This document shows, piece after piece, positions 81 through 47,682 of a DNA stretch of 64,000 nucleotides. The DNA comes from an uncultured Candidatus Saccharibacteria bacterium (GTDB lineage Bacteria > Patescibacteriota > Minisyncoccia > Phycocordibacterales > DATDWN01). The translations under genes and the position numbers were made by a program. Below the pieces are notes generated by a model, which ran no database searches, had not been told where the DNA came from, and worked only from the letters and a program-made list of their open reading frames with translations. How positions within the stretch are numbered: position 1 is the first letter of the stretch; each line of letters starts with the position of its first letter. The DNA lies in contig CAZKCA010000005.1 of assembly GCA_964551495.1 (NCBI GenBank), positions 5,705 to 69,704 of the forward strand, given 5' to 3'.

Positions 81-686
81 TTACTCCAATATACCGTCCA
101 AATTTACATCATACAAAATTTGCTCTGAAACTAGTCTATAATCAACCAGTTCACTGACAGAAAACCAATGTTTTATTTCATCTTCTGCTTCTTTAGGAGA
201 ACCTGAAGCATGTATTACATTTCTAACCGCTCTTCCATCTGTATCTGCCATAAGATAAGAATCTAGAACATAATCTCCCCTTATGGTACCGACATCAGAA
301 GATCTTGGTTCTGTTCCTCCTGTTATTTTTCTTACAAGCTCAACAGCATGAGCTCCTTGCCAGACCATAGCAACAACAGGACCGGATGTCATATATTTTT
401 TAAGATTCTCTAATACAATTTTAGTTATCTCAAGAGGATCGTTGGTCCACAAATCTTCTCCTTTTTCCTTAGCTGCTTTTATTCTCTTTTCACCAGTTAT
501 TATTCTCCACTGTGGATCTAAAGTATAATGTTTTTCTATATGATCTTCTGTTGGTACCATCATTTTTAGACCACAGAGTTTTAGGCCAACCTTTTCATAT
601 CTCTTTATAACTTCACCTATTAAACTTCTCTGTACCCCATCTGGTTTTATAACAACCAAAGTTCTTTCTTTTTTTGGATGATTCAT
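81..686 (-). CDS. ndk: Nucleoside diphosphate kinase with C-terminal extension
   Basis: Translation starts MNHPKKERTLVVIKPDGVQRSLIGEVIKRYEKVGLKL, a typical NDK N-terminus. The ORF-track start at 728 is probably over-extended; the internal Met is preferred. Confidence 0.75.
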   Translation of the reverse strand: MNHPKKERTLVVIKPDGVQRSLIGEVIKRYEKVGLKLCGLKMMVPTEDHIEKHYTLDPQWRIITGEKRIKAAKEKGEDLWTNDPLEITKIVLENLKKYMTSGPVVAMVWQGAHAVELVRKITGGTEPRSSDVGTIRGDYVLDSYLMADTDGRAVRNVIHASGSPKEAEDEIKHWFSVSELVDYRLVSEQILYDVNLDGILE

Positions 687-764
687 ATGAGAACATATTA
701 ACACAAAATAAAGCTCCGAATAAGCCAAATCTTAATAAAACCTAAGAACAAGACTTAAAATTGG

Positions 765-1532
765 CTACTTAGTCAGTATTATTGGATCACCTTCTGTAAT
801 AGCAATAGTGTGCTCAAAATGAGCAGCCTTTGAACCATCTCTGGTTTTATAAGTATAGCCATCTTTTGCCAAAGCAATCTTTGAAGAACCTCTAGTTATC
901 ATTGGTTCTATGGCAATAACCATTCCTGGCTTTAAAAGCTCTCCTGAACCCCTTTTCCCCTCATTTGGTACAAATGGATCCTCGTGCACAGAATACCCTA
1001 CACCATGACCGGCTAAACCCTCAGAAAGACCATAGCCTAATGGTTTTACAAAACTTTCTATAGCATATCCTATATCCCCTACACGATTGCCTCCTTTAGC
1101 AGCTTTTATACCCAAATAAAGAGCTTCTTTACAGTGCTCTATTAATTTACTGTCTTCAGGAGAAACCTCTCCGACCGGAACAGTGATTGCTGAATCTGTA
1201 ATTAAACCTTTGTGAGTTAATCCTAAATCTATAGAAACAACATCACCTTCTTTTAGTATTTTTTCTGGTTCGTTTGGAATACCATGAACAATCTCTTCAT
1301 TTACTGAAATACACAAGGCAGCAGGAAAAGGTCTTTTAGCTCCTCTTGGGGTATAGTTTAAAAAAGAAGCCTTATCTCCTTCCTCGAATATAAGTTCTCT
1401 TGCGTAATCTTCTAAAAACTTAGTAGAAACGCCTGATCCTACTTTTTTAGCAACCAAAGACAAAATAAGAGCGTGACGCTTCCCACCCTCTCTCATTATT
1501 TGTATTTCTTCTTTGGTTTTTATATTAATCAT
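765..1532 (-). CDS. map: Methionine aminopeptidase type I
   Basis: 255 aa with MAP-like pita-bread fold motifs. Sits after adk and secY as in canonical spc operon ends. Confidence 0.85.
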   Translation of the reverse strand: MINIKTKEEIQIMREGGKRHALILSLVAKKVGSGVSTKFLEDYARELIFEEGDKASFLNYTPRGAKRPFPAALCISVNEEIVHGIPNEPEKILKEGDVVSIDLGLTHKGLITDSAITVPVGEVSPEDSKLIEHCKEALYLGIKAAKGGNRVGDIGYAIESFVKPLGYGLSEGLAGHGVGYSVHEDPFVPNEGKRGSGELLKPGMVIAIEPMITRGSSKIALAKDGYTYKTRDGSKAAHFEHTIAITEGDPIILTK

Positions 1533-1538
1533 AAAAAT

Positions 1539-2129
1539 CTACCACTCTAGTTTATCAAGTATATCTTGATGTACTTTCTCTATTGGCTGTTCGCCGTTTA
1601 TATCTAAAAAATTATAAAGTTTATTTGATTTAAAATATTCAACAGCTGGCAAAGTATCTCTTTCAAACCAATCAAGTCTATTTTTTATTTGCTCTGGCTG
1701 AATATCATCTGATCTTCCTCTTAAAATAAGCCTTTCTTCGGACCATTCCCTGGAAACATTAAGATATACAATATAAGGTTTCCTGTTGTAAAACTCCATG
1801 GCTGTACTAAATGTCATAGCCTCAGGTAAAGATCTAGTTATACCATCAAATAATATATGGTTATTTTCTTTTATCGAATCAAGTAATATATTGGCCCACA
1901 TCCATATAGCCAAAAAATCTGGCTGTCGCTCTCCTGTTTCATATACTCCTAAGGACAACTTGTTAGAATAGCCGTCCTGTCTAAGAAAATCTCTAAACCT
2001 AGCACCTGTTTCTAGATACAAAATTTCATTCTCTGAGTCTTTTTCTTTTATCTTTTTCTGCAACAAATCAGCCTGAGTTCCTTTACCACACCCAGAACGA
2101 CCTATGAAAACAAAAGTAAGAGGTTGCAT
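1539..2129 (-). CDS. adk: Adenylate kinase-like nucleoside monophosphate kinase
   Basis: P-loop GRSGCGKGTQ, FDG...R and GRSDD motifs. Lies between secY and map. Confidence 0.65.
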   Translation of the reverse strand: MQPLTFVFIGRSGCGKGTQADLLQKKIKEKDSENEILYLETGARFRDFLRQDGYSNKLSLGVYETGERQPDFLAIWMWANILLDSIKENNHILFDGITRSLPEAMTFSTAMEFYNRKPYIVYLNVSREWSEERLILRGRSDDIQPEQIKNRLDWFERDTLPAVEYFKSNKLYNFLDINGEQPIEKVHQDILDKLEW

Positions 2130-4850: not shown

Positions 4851-5384
4851 CTAAGCACTCTTCTTACCTTGTTTTCTCTTAATAACCTCATTTTCATATC
4901 TTATACCTTTACCCTTATAAGGTTCTGGTTTTTTCCAATCTCTTATATCTGCAGCAAATTGTCCTACTTTTTCTTTGTCTATACCTGAAATGGTTATTAT
5001 ATTTTTTTCTGATGTAACAGTAAGCCCTTCTGGAATTTTTATATTTACAGAATGAGAAAAACCTAGAGACATTACCAAATCTTTTCCTTTAATTTCTGCT
5101 TTATAACCTATACCTTCTACAATTAACTTTTTAGTGAAAAGTTTATTAACACCATCTATCATATTACCTATATGAGAAGCGTATGTCCCCCACAAAGCAT
5201 TACTCTCTATAGACTTAGATTTTGGAACCAAATTAATTTCATTACCAGATATGTTTATATCAATAGTAGATTTAAATTTTCTATCTATTTGACCAAGAGG
5301 ACCTTTGACGGTTAAAACTCCTGAATTTATAGATACTTCAGTTTTTGGTGGTATTGATATTGTTTTTTTACCTATTCTTGACAT
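4851..5384 (-). CDS. rplF: 50S ribosomal protein L6
   Basis: MSRIGKK start; the ORF-track start at 5399 overlaps rpsH. Confidence 0.85.
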
Positions 5385-44070: not shown

Positions 44071-45132
44071 ATGTCAAAACACTATAAAGATATAAAAATT
44101 ACAAATCTTCCAGATAGAGAAATAGAAATAATCGGTGCCATCACTGTAGAAAAAATGACTTCTGCTAGAGATGAAGCTTTGAAAAAAATAACCGAAAATA
44201 TAGAGTTAGACGGCTTTAGAAAAGGCAATGCTCCTGTTTCTTTGGTTGCCCAAAAAGTAGGTGAAATGAAAATAATGGAAGAAGCAGCAGAGATTGCTTT
44301 AAATGACGTATACCCTTCTATTCTAGAGGACCACAAGGTAGATGCCATAGGTAGACCAGAAATACATATAACTAAAATTGCCCCTGAAAATCCTCTAGAA
44401 TTTAAAATAAAAACAGCCCTAATGCCAGAAGTTAAACTTGGTAACTATAAAAAAATCGCAAAAGAGGTTAAAAAAGAAGATAAATTTGAAGTGGAAGAAA
44501 AAGAAGTGGATGAAGCTATACTAAATATTAGAAAAAATGTTGCTCATCAAATGATGCATGAAAAAGAAGGTCTGCACGAACATGATCATAGTCACGGAGA
44601 AATAAAAGATGAAGACCTTCCAGAAGTAGATGAAAATTTCCTAAAAATGATTGGCGATTTTAAAGATGTAGAAGATTTGAAAACAAAAATCAAAGAAGGG
44701 ATACTGAAAGAGAAAGAAATGAGAGCCAAGGATAAAAATAGGATAGATGTTTTGGAAAAAATAATGGAAGAGTCTACCATAGAAATACCTAAGGTAATAA
44801 TAGATGGAGAATTGGACAAAATGATGGCTCAGTTTACAGACGAAATAGAAAGAGTTGGTATAAAAATAGAAGACTATTTAAAACAAATAAATAAAACCGA
44901 AGAAAACCTAAGAGACGAATGGAAAGAGACAGCTACAAAGAGAGCAAAATCTCAAATAATCCTAAATACAATCGCTAGAGAAGAAAAAATTTCTCCAGAC
45001 GAAGAAGAAGTTAAAAAAGAAATGGAACACATCCTCTCTCATCACAAAGATGCAGACAGATTTCGTGTAAGAATGTATGTAGAAACATTTCTAACAAACG
45101 AGTTGGTATTTAAATTCTTGGAAGATAAATAA
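44071..45132 (+). CDS. tig: Trigger factor (short form)
   Basis: DGFRKGNAPVSLV ribosome-binding motif region; upstream of clpP. Confidence 0.7.
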   Translation: MSKHYKDIKITNLPDREIEIIGAITVEKMTSARDEALKKITENIELDGFRKGNAPVSLVAQKVGEMKIMEEAAEIALNDVYPSILEDHKVDAIGRPEIHITKIAPENPLEFKIKTALMPEVKLGNYKKIAKEVKKEDKFEVEEKEVDEAILNIRKNVAHQMMHEKEGLHEHDHSHGEIKDEDLPEVDENFLKMIGDFKDVEDLKTKIKEGILKEKEMRAKDKNRIDVLEKIMEESTIEIPKVIIDGELDKMMAQFTDEIERVGIKIEDYLKQINKTEENLRDEWKETATKRAKSQIILNTIAREEKISPDEEEVKKEMEHILSHHKDADRFRVRMYVETFLTNELVFKFLEDK

Positions 45133-46102
45133 TTCCCCTCTCCAATTTGTAACTATTACCATGCCTCAAAAGTCCCAAATAAGATTGGGTGGTGGAATCT
45201 TTTCTGTTATTTAACAACAGATTTCTAAACATTTTCTTCTTCGTAGCTGTCCTCAAAACCCTATGCTTAGGAAAATGAACCCAACCAAGAAAATCTACTC
45301 CAGAATAAAATGTTTTTATAAACACCTTATTTGGATGTAAAGAGAGTTTTAATTCTTCTTCCAAAAAATTTTGTATTTTTGGAATAAGTTCCAAAAGATA
45401 ATTTTTACTTTGACTCAAGACAACAAAATCATCTGCATATCTTACATAATATTTTACTTTCATTTTGTGTTTTATCCACTGATCAAACTTATTCATATAA
45501 ATATTTACTAAAAGTTGACTAGTTAGATTACCTAAAGGCAAGCCTTTGCCTTCCTCTGTAGAATAGAAACTTTTTATAACTTTCTCCAAAAGCCAACTTA
45601 TATCTTTATCTTCCATACTTTCATTTAAAATTTTTAAAAGAATTTCTTGGTCAATAGAAGCAAAAAACTTTCTAATATCACATTTCAAAATCCAACAAGT
45701 TTTAGTATTGTTTTTAGAAACTTTATTTGCAAAACTTTTAAACCTTTTTATAGCTCTATGAGTACCTTTTCCCAAACGGCAGGAATATGAATCGTAAATG
45801 AAAATTTTATCAAAATGCGGGTACAAAATTCTATAAATTGAATGGTGTAAAAGTCTGTCCCTAACTAAAGCCTTGTGGATATTTCTAGGCTTAGGATCAG
45901 AAATATTAAAAGCTTTATAGTATCCATGAGTATATTTTTTATCTTTTAAATCATTGTGTAATTCAAAGATATTATCCATTAAATTAAGTTGGAATTCTTG
46001 AACATCTTTCTTTCTACTTTTACCCCTCAAAAATTCTTTCCAAGCCAGAAGCAAGTTTTCTAAAGAAATGATATCGTTATATGTAGCATAAATTTTTTTC
46101 AT
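45110..46102 (-). CDS. Diversity-generating retroelement reverse transcriptase
   Basis: RT motifs include VRYADDFVV and LPLGNLTSQLLVNIY (SQ-type motif 4 typical of DGR RTs). ~330 aa with no maturase or endonuclease domains. AT-rich like the host. Confidence 0.85.
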   Translation of the reverse strand: MKKIYATYNDIISLENLLLAWKEFLRGKSRKKDVQEFQLNLMDNIFELHNDLKDKKYTHGYYKAFNISDPKPRNIHKALVRDRLLHHSIYRILYPHFDKIFIYDSYSCRLGKGTHRAIKRFKSFANKVSKNNTKTCWILKCDIRKFFASIDQEILLKILNESMEDKDISWLLEKVIKSFYSTEEGKGLPLGNLTSQLLVNIYMNKFDQWIKHKMKVKYYVRYADDFVVLSQSKNYLLELIPKIQNFLEEELKLSLHPNKVFIKTFYSGVDFLGWVHFPKHRVLRTATKKKMFRNLLLNNRKDSTTQSYLGLLRHGNSYKLERGIIYLPRI

Positions 46103-46135
46103 TTTTATAATTACAACATATATAATTAAACTATA

Positions 46136-46518
46136 ATGACCCCCCCCCCGAAGCAAGACAGCTAAAGTTACTACCTATTATTAATAACGCTCTAGCTATA
46201 TATAAATTATGGCACACCTATTCAAATGATTTGCCCAAAAATTTACGTTATACATTGGGAGGAAAAATAGAAAATACTTTTATCTCAATACTGGAAAGCC
46301 TTTTTATTGCAACATATCAAAAGAAAGAAGAAAAATTGCCAACTATAGTTTATACTATGAAAAAAACAGATCTTCTTAAATTTTTCTTGAGAATTACATG
46401 GGAGCTACATGGGATAGATAATAAAAAGTATCTAGTTATTTCAGAAAAAGTTAATGAACTTGGGAGAATGATTGGAGGTTGGAAAAAAGGATTAGAAACA
46501 AAAACTCCCCGACCTTAA
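46136..46518 (+). pseudogene. avd: DGR accessory variability determinant (Avd-like four-helix-bundle protein); its ATG is out of frame with the body across a C9 tract
   Basis: Body frame reads ...LKLLPIINNALAIYKLWHTYSNDLPKNLRYTLGGKIEN...LGRMIGGWKKGL, an Avd / 23S-rRNA-intervening-sequence-protein-like pattern. The only plausible ATG (46136) is +1 relative to this frame, separated by cccccccccc at 46141-46149. The in-frame stretch begins 46126. Confidence 0.7.
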
Positions 46519-46541
46519 GCCGAGGAGAAAACCAACAGTTT

Positions 46542-46648
46542 CGAGAGAACACATGGTTGCCATCGTTCCACCTGTTCGGGTCCTCGACGGAGTTCGCATT
46601 GACATTCCAGCCGTCGTCGTTCCAGTTCACGTTGACCGCGCGAAGCAC
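46542..46648 (-). repeat. DGR template repeat (TR)
   Basis: 107 bp matching 47021..47127 except at 16 positions, all A in the minus-strand sense of this copy. Not inside a real gene: ORF-track 46451..46648 is just its AAC-rich translation. Confidence 0.85.
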
Positions 46649-47010
46649 TACCCTGCGTTATCGTATACAAGATCATCTATATCACCGCCAGCCAAACCAT
46701 GACCAGCTGAATTTTATCCGGGACATCAAAGTCCGCTAATCTCATATACCAATTCTTGTTATTTTTTTGAAGAGACTTTCCTCACTCTCACACAAGGTAT
46801 ACCCAATGTGACTCTCGAGAAAAATATCCTAAGACCATGACGTGAAAGCCGTAGCCGTCACGTAACACATGATTTCGGAAATAAGTATAGCAAGAGAAAT
46901 TTAAATATAAAAAATTGACCCCCAATCCGCCGAAGCAGACTGAGGGTCAAAGGGCCCAAGAGGCAAAGGATCAGGCTTGCGCCGTAGCCGAAGGTTCCGA
47001 GGGCACGATT

Positions 47011-47682
47011 TCAAGAATTGCGAGAGAACACAAGGTAGCCACCGCTCCACCTGACCGGGTCCACGACGGAGTCCGCATAGACAAACCAGCCGTCGTCGAG
47101 CCAGCGCACGATGACCGCGCGAAGCACACCAGCACTGTCCTTGATGTAGAAAACATTGGCGTAGCCGTTGTTCAAGAGAACACCTTCTTCACCATTCTTC
47201 TGCTTCTCCATAAGGGAGAGCACCTCCGACAGGGTGGTTTCAGCTTTCGCTTCGCCACCGAGTTCAGTGATGATCGGACCGTCCACCGATGCCTTGCGCA
47301 GTTTTGCATAGCGCAGGGTCTGTTCGCTGATCAGGTCTTCGGTTTTGCCGTCGCCGTTCAGGAACCATGAGGTGAAGTTGTCGCCAAGGTAGCTGATCTT
47401 CACCGGAGCGTTACGCTTGGTGTTGACCACAAACTTCTCTTTGGCGACGAGCTTGCTGGTGGTCGCATTGACCACGATCGTCGAGACGAGCTCGAGAATC
47501 GAGGGTGTGGGTTTCGGTTCGGCCACCTGCGTGACTTGGCTACTCCAACAGGGTTCCTTGCGGAGAAACCTCTTCAGTTCCTCTTCCCATTGGTCGCCTT
47601 CCTGGCCACCAAGGTTCACAATGAGCTGATTGAGCGGTCCGGTTGTGAATTCGCGGAGCGCCTTGCTGAGCATGGTATCCAT
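47011..47682 (-). CDS. DGR target protein with C-terminal variable C-type-lectin-like region
   Basis: 223 aa ending ...LRAVIVRWLDDGWFVYADSVVDPVRWSGGYLVFSRNS. GC-rich codon usage unlike neighbouring genes; followed by a hairpin and T-run. Confidence 0.75.
   Translation of the reverse strand: MDTMLSKALREFTTGPLNQLIVNLGGQEGDQWEEELKRFLRKEPCWSSQVTQVAEPKPTPSILELVSTIVVNATTSKLVAKEKFVVNTKRNAPVKISYLGDNFTSWFLNGDGKTEDLISEQTLRYAKLRKASVDGPIITELGGEAKAETTLSEVLSLMEKQKNGEEGVLLNNGYANVFYIKDSAGVLRAVIVRWLDDGWFVYADSVVDPVRWSGGYLVFSRNS
47021..47127 (-). repeat. DGR variable repeat (VR) at the 3' end of the target gene
   Basis: Counterpart of the TR with T/G/C at the 16 TR adenine positions. Encodes the C-terminal ~36 aa of ORF 47011..47682. 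Confidence 0.85.

Follow-up and report, generated by a model that had tools for sequence, protein, structure and literature searches.

A length-variable C-tract at the start of avd as a probable phase-variation switch in a diversity-generating retroelement of the Patescibacteriota

We analysed a 64,000-nucleotide (nt) stretch, hereafter the window, of contig CAZKCA010000005.1 (assembly GCA_964551495.1) from an uncultured Candidatus Saccharibacteria bacterium. The window contains a diversity-generating retroelement (DGR) whose accessory gene, avd, has an uninterrupted run of ten C residues beside its start codon, and as assembled this start codon is out of frame with the remainder of the gene. 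Our analyses indicate that the run is probably the site of slipped-strand phase variation of Avd translation, and hence of DGR activity. This reading draws on the frame arithmetic of the window, on a slippery repeat found at the same site in related loci, and on tract length alleles in otherwise identical sequences.

Results and Discussion

The C-tract and the reading frames of avd

The homopolymer occupies positions 46140 to 46149 of the plus strand, is G10 on the strand of the reverse transcriptase (RT) gene, and begins 1 nt after the avd ATG codon, such that positions 46136–46152 read ATG A CCCCCCCCCC GAA. A first-pass annotation, made from the sequence alone, had described the tract as nine C residues at 46141..46149. 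Its own translation of the ATG frame, MTPPPK, requires ten, and ten are present. Its reading of that frame as MTPPPKQDS followed by a stop was borne out, with the TAA at 46163–46165, as was its view that ATG 46136 is the only plausible avd ATG: this is the sole ATG, GTG or TTG in the window locus that reads into the tract. The annotation had also correctly placed the Avd body frame at -1 relative to the ATG frame. Codons of the body run from 46150, read EARQLKLLPIINNALAIYKLWHTYSNDLPKNLRY... (including EARQLKLLPIINNALAIYKLW) and end with the TAA at 46516–46518.

The further proposal that one C fewer would fuse the two frames had to be revised. When the tract was rebuilt at lengths from C7 to C12, ATG 46136 was joined to the Avd body at C8 (126 amino acids (aa)) and at C11 (127 aa, MTPPPEARQLKLLP...), which correspond to the loss of two C residues and the gain of one, respectively. 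The C7, C9, C10 and C12 versions gave no fusion and reached a stop within 15 codons of ATG 46136; the C9 version, for instance, reads MTPPRSKTAKVTTYY followed by two stop codons. The assembled C10 is an out-of-frame state, and the nearest in-frame state has one C more.

Chance does not account for the C10 tract. The window, which has a GC content of 34%, contains no other run of C or G of at least seven, the next longest being two runs of C6. From base composition, about 0.003 runs of at least ten would be expected in the window. In addition, CCC is the rarest proline codon in the window's long open reading frames (ORFs), accounting for 5% of their proline codons, and a requirement for Pro-Pro-Pro therefore does not account for CCC-CCC-CCC, which argues that the homopolymer was selected at the nucleotide level. 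In these respects the tract resembles the repeats of known contingency loci, being an uninterrupted simple sequence repeat (SSR) of about eight or more G/C residues that lies within a coding region near its 5' end, and whose unit changes toggle the product between full-length (C8 and C11) and truncated (C7, C9, C10 and C12) forms. ATG 46136 has no Shine-Dalgarno (SD) motif before it. This is uninformative because such motifs are rare in this genome, with only four of the 35 ORFs of at least 200 aa in the window having one and the sequence upstream of starts being merely AT-rich.

The product of the body frame matches the Pfam family bAvd (PF22296, E 7.8e-12), and its AlphaFold2 (AF2) model has a mean predicted local distance difference test (pLDDT) score of 90. 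The model has helices at residues 16–33, 44–62, 67–93 and 99–126 and a short helical turn at residues 38–41, and Foldseek matched it to Bordetella phage Avd (4DWL) and to the Avd chains of a DGR ribonucleoprotein (RNP; 8UB7), with TM 0.75/0.87. A PDB sequence search with the Avd profile matched nothing. The first canonical start in the body frame, TTG 46231, is located downstream of helix 1, and the 95-aa product annotated from it would therefore be an incomplete Avd. Between the tract and helix 1 the window has no ATG, GTG or TTG, the leucine codon at this site being CTA (46171–46173). The residues before helix 1, including the tract-encoded Pro-Pro-Pro, were modelled with low confidence, and the gain or loss of a proline in this region should be tolerated.

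A slippery repeat at the same site in related loci

A search with the in-frame Avd identified 173 relatives, and 47 proteins were retrieved. The DNA set comprised 160 loci, half of them (80) from GTDB species representatives and the other 80 from metagenomes. These are titled mostly as metagenome-assembled genomes (MAGs) of Patescibacteria or the candidate phyla radiation (CPR), with some third-party annotation (TPA) records titled as Saccharibacteria, Gammaproteobacteria or Bdellovibrionales. The first-pass annotation had suggested a comparison of homologous DGRs, in which relatives without a tract would speak against a switch. The comparison came out in favor of one, as a repeat was present in 147 of the 160 loci, 10–26 nt before the LP[VI]I codons with which helix 1 begins.

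The unique tract-bearing set comprised 136 sequences (135 relatives and the window). Poly-C tracts in the unique loci were 6 (5 loci), 7 (5), 8 (9), 9 (50), 10 (39), 11 (16), 12 (2) or 13 (2) nt in length, and in ten loci (eight unique) the poly-C was replaced by an (AC)n repeat of 19–36 nt that is read as THTHTH. Runs of C or G of at least eight were concentrated at this position, with 117 at the avd tract site versus three elsewhere in 628 kb of loci, and a pure repeat was conserved down to approximately 41% Avd identity. Together, these data indicate that the conserved feature is the slippery repeat and not the peptide that it encodes. We consider the replacement of poly-C by (AC)n to be the strongest argument for this, as it points to selection for slippage at the DNA level rather than for a peptide, an RNA motif or ribosomal slippage.

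Thirteen family members have no repeat. In five that were directly identified (L017 with its duplicates L113 and L115, L027 and L109), an in-frame ATG precedes the YKxW motif of helix 1 by 11–25 codons; in L105 a GTG alone is found, 14 codons before YKxW. A degenerate CACACA remnant is present in L027, which is in frame. Ten distant, phage-borne Avds (26–37% identity) also have no repeat and all start with ATG, which in nine of the ten follows an AGGAG- or GGAG-type SD; the ATG of the tenth (L170) has no obvious SD.

In architecture, the window is a typical member of the family. In 72 of the 74 relatives with a detectable pair of template repeat (TR) and variable repeat (VR), the TR is on the strand opposite to avd, 17–64 nt past the avd 3' end, and on the TR strand the TR/VR mismatches are adenine-biased. 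One locus, L043, has a second DGR (RT at 382-1419, minus strand; avd at 1389-1736, plus strand), in which a separate C11 occupies 1367-1377, at the avd/RT junction; this run is one of the three found outside the avd tract site.

Length alleles and frame states

Of 21 locus pairs whose 400-nt flanks are 100% identical, six differ by one C in tract length; several of the identical-flank pairs of equal length represent the same contig in two collections. Both in-frame and out-of-frame alleles were found in four of the six polymorphic elements. The closest relative of the window was represented in five samples which, with 0–1 mismatch over 800 nt of flank, had tracts of C8, C10, C10, C10 and C11. 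In the closest relatives L081, L082 and L161 an ATGATG abuts the tract, and the arithmetic across the five samples is the same as in the window, with C8 and C11 in frame and C10 out. Length polymorphism in otherwise identical sequences, a feature of contingency loci, was seen in relatives, the strain of the window itself being represented by one contig.

Among the 112 unique loci whose frame state was unambiguous, avd was in frame in 37, required the addition of one nt in 26 and required the removal of one in 49. A fixed programmed frameshift would be expected to show one conserved relation between the frames, and this spread instead points to a drifting, reversible repeat. As assembled, avd is out of frame in about 60–65% of the 135 relatives, which derive from many projects. 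The avd ATG of most relatives is 20–45 nt upstream of the tract, and at most loci an upstream ATG that reads into the repeat exists in one frame only; 82 of the 135 lack any ATG, GTG or TTG in the Avd frame from the preceding stop up to the repeat. Homologues thus share the repeat at this site but differ in its length and frame state, again as in contingency loci. One candidate ON/OFF pair of proteins, P0042 and P0047, was rejected, as both are the same C11 allele called from different starts.

A proposed switch on Avd and on diversification

Based on these findings, we propose that slipped-strand mispairing during replication adds C residues to, or removes them from, the avd tract. At C8 or C11, ATG 46136 would be in frame and a full-length Avd of 126–127 aa would be made, with the tract encoding a short, disordered Pro-Pro(-Pro) tail. 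At C9, C10 or C12, translation from the ATG would end after 9–15 codons and, with no start between the tract and helix 1 in the window, this OFF state would give no complete Avd. The assembled C10 would represent OFF, one insertion away from ON. Bordetella-type DGR RTs require Avd for cDNA synthesis (PMC6182149), and for this reason the Avd switch would be expected to gate mutagenic retrohoming, turning diversification of the target VR (47012-47127) on or off in a heritable and reversible manner in a subpopulation of cells. We infer that tract length changes at high frequency in the strain of the window, that OFF alleles are without functional Avd, and that DGR activity tracks the Avd state.

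The control of the timing of diversification by DGR hosts is largely an open question, and unrestrained adenine mutagenesis would keep destroying working variants of the target protein. If the proposal is correct, a stochastic, heritable switch on Avd would let most cells freeze a useful variant while a minority keeps exploring.

The RT side of the junction

The first-pass annotation had noted an N-terminal extension of the RT ORF across the tract. The minus-strand frame is indeed open back to TTG 46156 and reads MLRGGGHYSL..., with GGG across the tract, but in the window the tract is probably untranslated rather than RT coding sequence. The RT of the window most likely starts at ATG 46102, with the tract 37 nt upstream; this is the start in the source annotation and the one indicated by homologues with a start of their own. 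RT homologues with their own ATG start 6–8 residues before a Y/F-x-D/E-I-I-S motif. In the window, the tract may possibly affect the RT leader.

The relatives differ in this region. An RT ATG between the tract and the Y/F-x-D/E-I-I-S motif was present in 75 and absent in 54. In 36 of the 54 relatives without their own RT ATG, versus five of the 75 with one, the avd frame has a CAT codon (the His of LPVIEH) 22–28 nt past the tract, or 33 nt in L016 (Fisher 2e-13, phylogeny ignored). This avd CAT is an ATG on the RT strand, which reads MLNNRQ..., and at the 28 CAT loci with an unambiguous avd state the RT-strand ATG is in the RT frame at exactly those tract lengths at which avd is in frame. In the LPVIEH clade (Table 1) the RT-strand ATG is located approximately 26 nt beyond the tract, and, reciprocally, the avd start ATG is read on the RT strand as a His codon of the RT. 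The RT ORF of this clade probably crosses the tract, such that avd and RT would overlap head-to-head and be toggled together. A two-sided effect of the tract, on both Avd and RT, as suggested by the first-pass annotation, thus finds some support in the sequences of a sister clade.

These observations raise the broader possibility that, throughout this CPR DGR family, the repeat at the head-to-head avd/RT junction is a stochastic master switch for targeted hypermutation, with a single indel toggling both RT and Avd in one clade. We put this forward tentatively, and regard it as somewhat short of probable.

Alternative explanations

The first-pass annotation had left a choice between a homopolymer error and a phase-variation switch. 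If the contig of the window were in error, the true genome would have C11 (or C8) and avd would be an ordinary intact gene with a homopolymer. Runs of ten are error-prone, the window is known from a single MAG contig, and one added C restores the frame. However, a one-off assembly error does not suffice to explain the same out-of-frame state in about two thirds of independent relatives, the repeats in 147 of 160 loci and the identical-flank alleles, which differ by up to 3 nt (C8, C10 and C11); these observations support the switch. Moreover, even with a consensus that is off by one C, the tract would still be a conserved, length-variable repeat and the biological conclusion would be unchanged. 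We judge an error to be quite improbable as the explanation. Decay of avd to a pseudogene in a dying DGR would also be consistent with the frameshift as assembled. It was rejected and is barely credible, as the repeat is pure over deep divergence, the opposite of what decay would produce, and the rest of the element is intact: the RT has no defect, the TR/VR differences are almost all at TR adenines, and the Avd body has no other defect and a confident model.

A more serious alternative is recoding, in which avd would be fixed out of frame and a constant, low fraction of Avd would be produced by RNA-polymerase slippage, or by +1/-1 slippage of tRNA-Pro on CCC-CCC-CCC during a Pro-Pro-Pro stall, keeping Avd and DGR activity low. 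Homopolymer runs are slippery and polyproline stalls ribosomes, and a C9–C11 run encoding PPP would be both slippery and stall-prone; C10 is in itself a slippery sequence. The out-of-frame two thirds of loci would be tolerable if every tract length gave some in-frame product. Rescue by transcriptional slippage is known from endosymbiont poly(A) tracts, and recoding from insertion sequence (IS) elements and dnaX-type genes. As in those systems, a gene that is out of frame but holds a long homopolymer might yet give some product. Those cases, however, involve A/T runs and a fixed frame relation, unlike the C/G run of avd, its (AC)n counterpart in some relatives and its unfixed frame relation. 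Homologues do not share one direction and site of shift, as the 37/26/49 distribution shows, and identical elements differ in state, which is unlike known programmed frameshifts. In addition, (AC)n of 19–36 nt has no homopolymer and is a classical substrate for DNA slippage and a poor one for ribosomal or transcriptional slippage, and length alleles at the DNA level were directly seen. We therefore regard recoding as an unlikely account of the tract, while noting that recoding and DNA switching are compatible with each other.

The tract might alternatively act in transcription or in the RT leader, as a spacer or 5' untranslated region (UTR) element at the point where avd and RT diverge, with the effect on the avd frame being secondary. 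The position of the tract upstream of the RT start, the 33-nt gap between the avd and RT start codons, and the precedent of SSRs in divergent promoters (H. influenzae hifA/hifB) are in keeping with such a role. On the minus strand TTGCTT-15 nt-TATAGT spans the tract, and on the plus strand a -10-like TATAAT adjoins it. These are only weak consensus matches, the minus-strand candidate agreeing at 3/6 positions at -35 and having a 15-nt spacer, and promoter-like sites were about as frequent in the real sequence (9) as in shuffled sequence (6.7 +/- 2.5); the promoters of CPR bacteria are uncharacterised. The geometry of the relatives is also unfavorable. Their avd ATG is in most cases far enough upstream that the tract is inside the avd ORF, and their own RT ATG is 4–38 nt (mostly 10–24) from the tract, which leaves no room for a promoter. 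Based on this geometry and the weak matches the promoter-spacer model was set aside, and a primary role in transcription or in the RT leader is very unlikely.

Several points weigh against a slipped-strand switch on Avd. In searches for other assemblies of the window's strain, the RT, the Avd fragment and the target protein were each found on one contig only, and C11 and C8 in-frame versions of the window's Avd are absent from a collection of 15 billion proteins. Some of the length differences between assemblies could be homopolymer consensus errors, the contig of L103, for example, being at 2x coverage. The OFF state may also be leaky if C10 and Pro-Pro-Pro prompt RNA-polymerase slippage or tRNA-Pro frameshifting. 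Furthermore, many relatives may have a weak TTG start that is independent of the tract. The Leu codon before helix 1 (that of LP[VI]I) is TTG in 62% of relatives versus 17% of other avd Leu codons (p about 4e-24, phylogeny ignored), and TTG makes up 48% at this codon even in the clade without an overlapping RT ORF. Such a start would mean that control in those relatives is high/low rather than strictly on/off. Lastly, the -10-like TATAAT (46132-46137, plus strand) overlaps ATG 46136, which would fall outside the mRNA if that promoter were used. We give this overlap little weight, because promoter-like matches are no commoner than in shuffled sequence.

Comparison with known systems

Translational phase variation by intragenic poly-G/C tracts is established for contingency loci of Campylobacter jejuni, Neisseria, Haemophilus and Helicobacter (PMC6321876, PMC5084427). 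The avd tracts resemble these in having a G/C homopolymer of 8–13 near the 5' end of an ORF, one-unit indels that shift between full-length and truncated products, length alleles in otherwise identical sequence, and a mixture of ON and OFF states across isolates with close to one third in frame. In contrast to those loci, avd is part of a targeted hypermutation machine and does not encode a surface structure or a restriction-modification enzyme, its repeat is at the head-to-head junction of two divergent genes, and the hosts are uncultured groundwater CPR/Patescibacteria rather than host-adapted pathogens.

Repeats between divergent genes also have precedents, such as the (TA)n in the overlapping divergent promoters of hifA/hifB of H. 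influenzae, and poly-C tracts are found at the fim genes of Bordetella pertussis (PMC1891110). As in hifA/hifB, one repeat located between divergent genes could affect both. Unlike hifA/hifB and fim, where promoter spacing is altered, the avd repeat would act on the reading frame, being inside the avd ORF in most relatives and apparently inside both ORFs in one clade.

The DGR of Bordetella phage BPP-1 has the order avd-TR-brt, with structures available for its Avd (4DWL) and RNP (8UB7) (PMC6182149). The element in the window is similar in its RT and four-helix-bundle Avd, in its adenine-specific TR/VR differences and in having the VR at the 3' end of the target gene. It differs in that avd sits between TR and RT but on the opposite strand, the layout seen in 72 of 74 relatives, and in that avd carries the repeat, whereas the BPP-1-like and other phage Avds examined have an ATG start, mostly with a canonical SD, and no repeat. 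Our literature search, which did not include the 2017 survey of CPR DGRs by Paul et al., found no account of a switch based on a homopolymer or SSR in a DGR or its Avd. Phase variation by SSRs is well known, as are DGRs; the proposal made here is of a contingency repeat that controls targeted hypermutation and is conserved across a large CPR DGR family.

Consequences for annotation

Sixteen of the 47 retrieved family proteins are fragments of 81–95 aa, like that of the window, and many of the 47 start M..PP(P)..LP[VI]I. These fragment entries look like a systematic annotation artefact of the repeat. In many CPR DGRs avd is truncated or given a wrong start by gene callers, as is probably the RT gene in one clade, and DGR surveys may consequently under-call Avd in these lineages. 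Entries that are of the fragment type, or start at the Leu of LPVI, are P0001, P0053, P0056, P0058, P0064, P0068, P0072, P0075, P0077, P0081-P0083, P0090, P0100 and P0106. P0053 is a truncated call of the same gene as P0005.

The retroelement in the window

The features of the DGR, with two groups of related loci, are listed in Table 1. The element was recognized as a DGR by an RT with an RVT_1 domain beside an adenine-biased TR/VR pair and an Avd of the bAvd family. The repeats of the pair are 116 nt in length and have 19 mismatches, of which 17 fall at TR adenines when read on the minus strand. The copy at 46533-46648 is the one with the adenines at the mismatches, which identifies this copy as the TR and that at 47012-47127 as the VR. 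On the minus strand the order is target gene with VR, TR, avd (antisense), tract and RT, and to judge from its sequence the DGR looks complete and active. As avd is opposite to the target gene, TR and RT, a read-through transcript from TR to RT would include the G-tract and run antisense to avd over its full length.

Table 1. Features of the window DGR and related loci referred to in the text
Feature	Position or loci	Strand	Basis or remark
DGR reverse transcriptase, 330 aa, start ATG 46102 (MKKIYATYNDIIS...)	45110..46102	-	Pfam RVT_1 E 7.7e-27; exact product in source annotation
Open-frame extension upstream of RT start (TTG 46156, MLRGGGHYSLIIYVVIIK), holds G10	46103..46156	-	Probably 5' UTR or promoter
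Probable avd start codon ATG	46136..46138	+	1 nt before tract
Short OFF-state ORF, MTPPPKQDS-stop (C10 as assembled)	46136..46165	+	Stop TAA 46163-46165
C10 homopolymer, proposed hypermutable switch	46140..46149	+	Sole G/C run of at least 7; homologous repeat in relatives; length polymorphism
Avd body frame, including stop TAA 46516-46518	46150..46518	+	Pfam bAvd PF22296, AF2, Foldseek
Helix alpha-1 of Avd four-helix bundle (model residues 16-33)	46171..46224	+	AF2 model
95-aa Avd-like ORF from TTG, source-record annotation (P0001)	46231..46518	+	Truncated call from frameshift
GC-rich hairpin then T-run, directly after TR, overlapping avd 3' end/stop codon region	46505..46527	-	
Template repeat (TR)	46533..46648	-	84% identical to VR
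DGR target gene, 223 aa	47011..47682	-	Carries VR
Variable repeat (VR), 3' end of target gene	47012..47127	-	TR/VR comparison
Clade with Avd 'LPVIEH' and RT 'RRIQFTHxYEDIIS', no RT ATG, GTG or TTG from tract to conserved N-terminus	L003, L010, L011, L086, L087, L089, L094, L101 and ~28 further loci		
(AC)n subclade	L021, L028, L034, L054, L075, L107, L117, L153, L157, L159		Repeat just upstream of LPII codons

The 223-aa target protein had no Pfam match. Rfam gave no match at the tract itself, and a sub-threshold match to RT-9 (RF03080; 32.4 bits versus a gathering score of 46.1, E 0.011) was seen at 46754-46865 on the minus strand, in the stretch from the target gene to the TR; 20 related loci gave no match to this RNA at the gathering score. 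A second GC-rich hairpin followed by a T-run is present at 46915-46950 on the minus strand, after the target gene and VR. Elsewhere in the family, locus L062 has a C10 at 4931-4940 that is outside the DGR, in an intergenic inverted repeat (CCCTCCCCCCCCCC TCATGA GGGAG...), and is apparently unrelated to avd.

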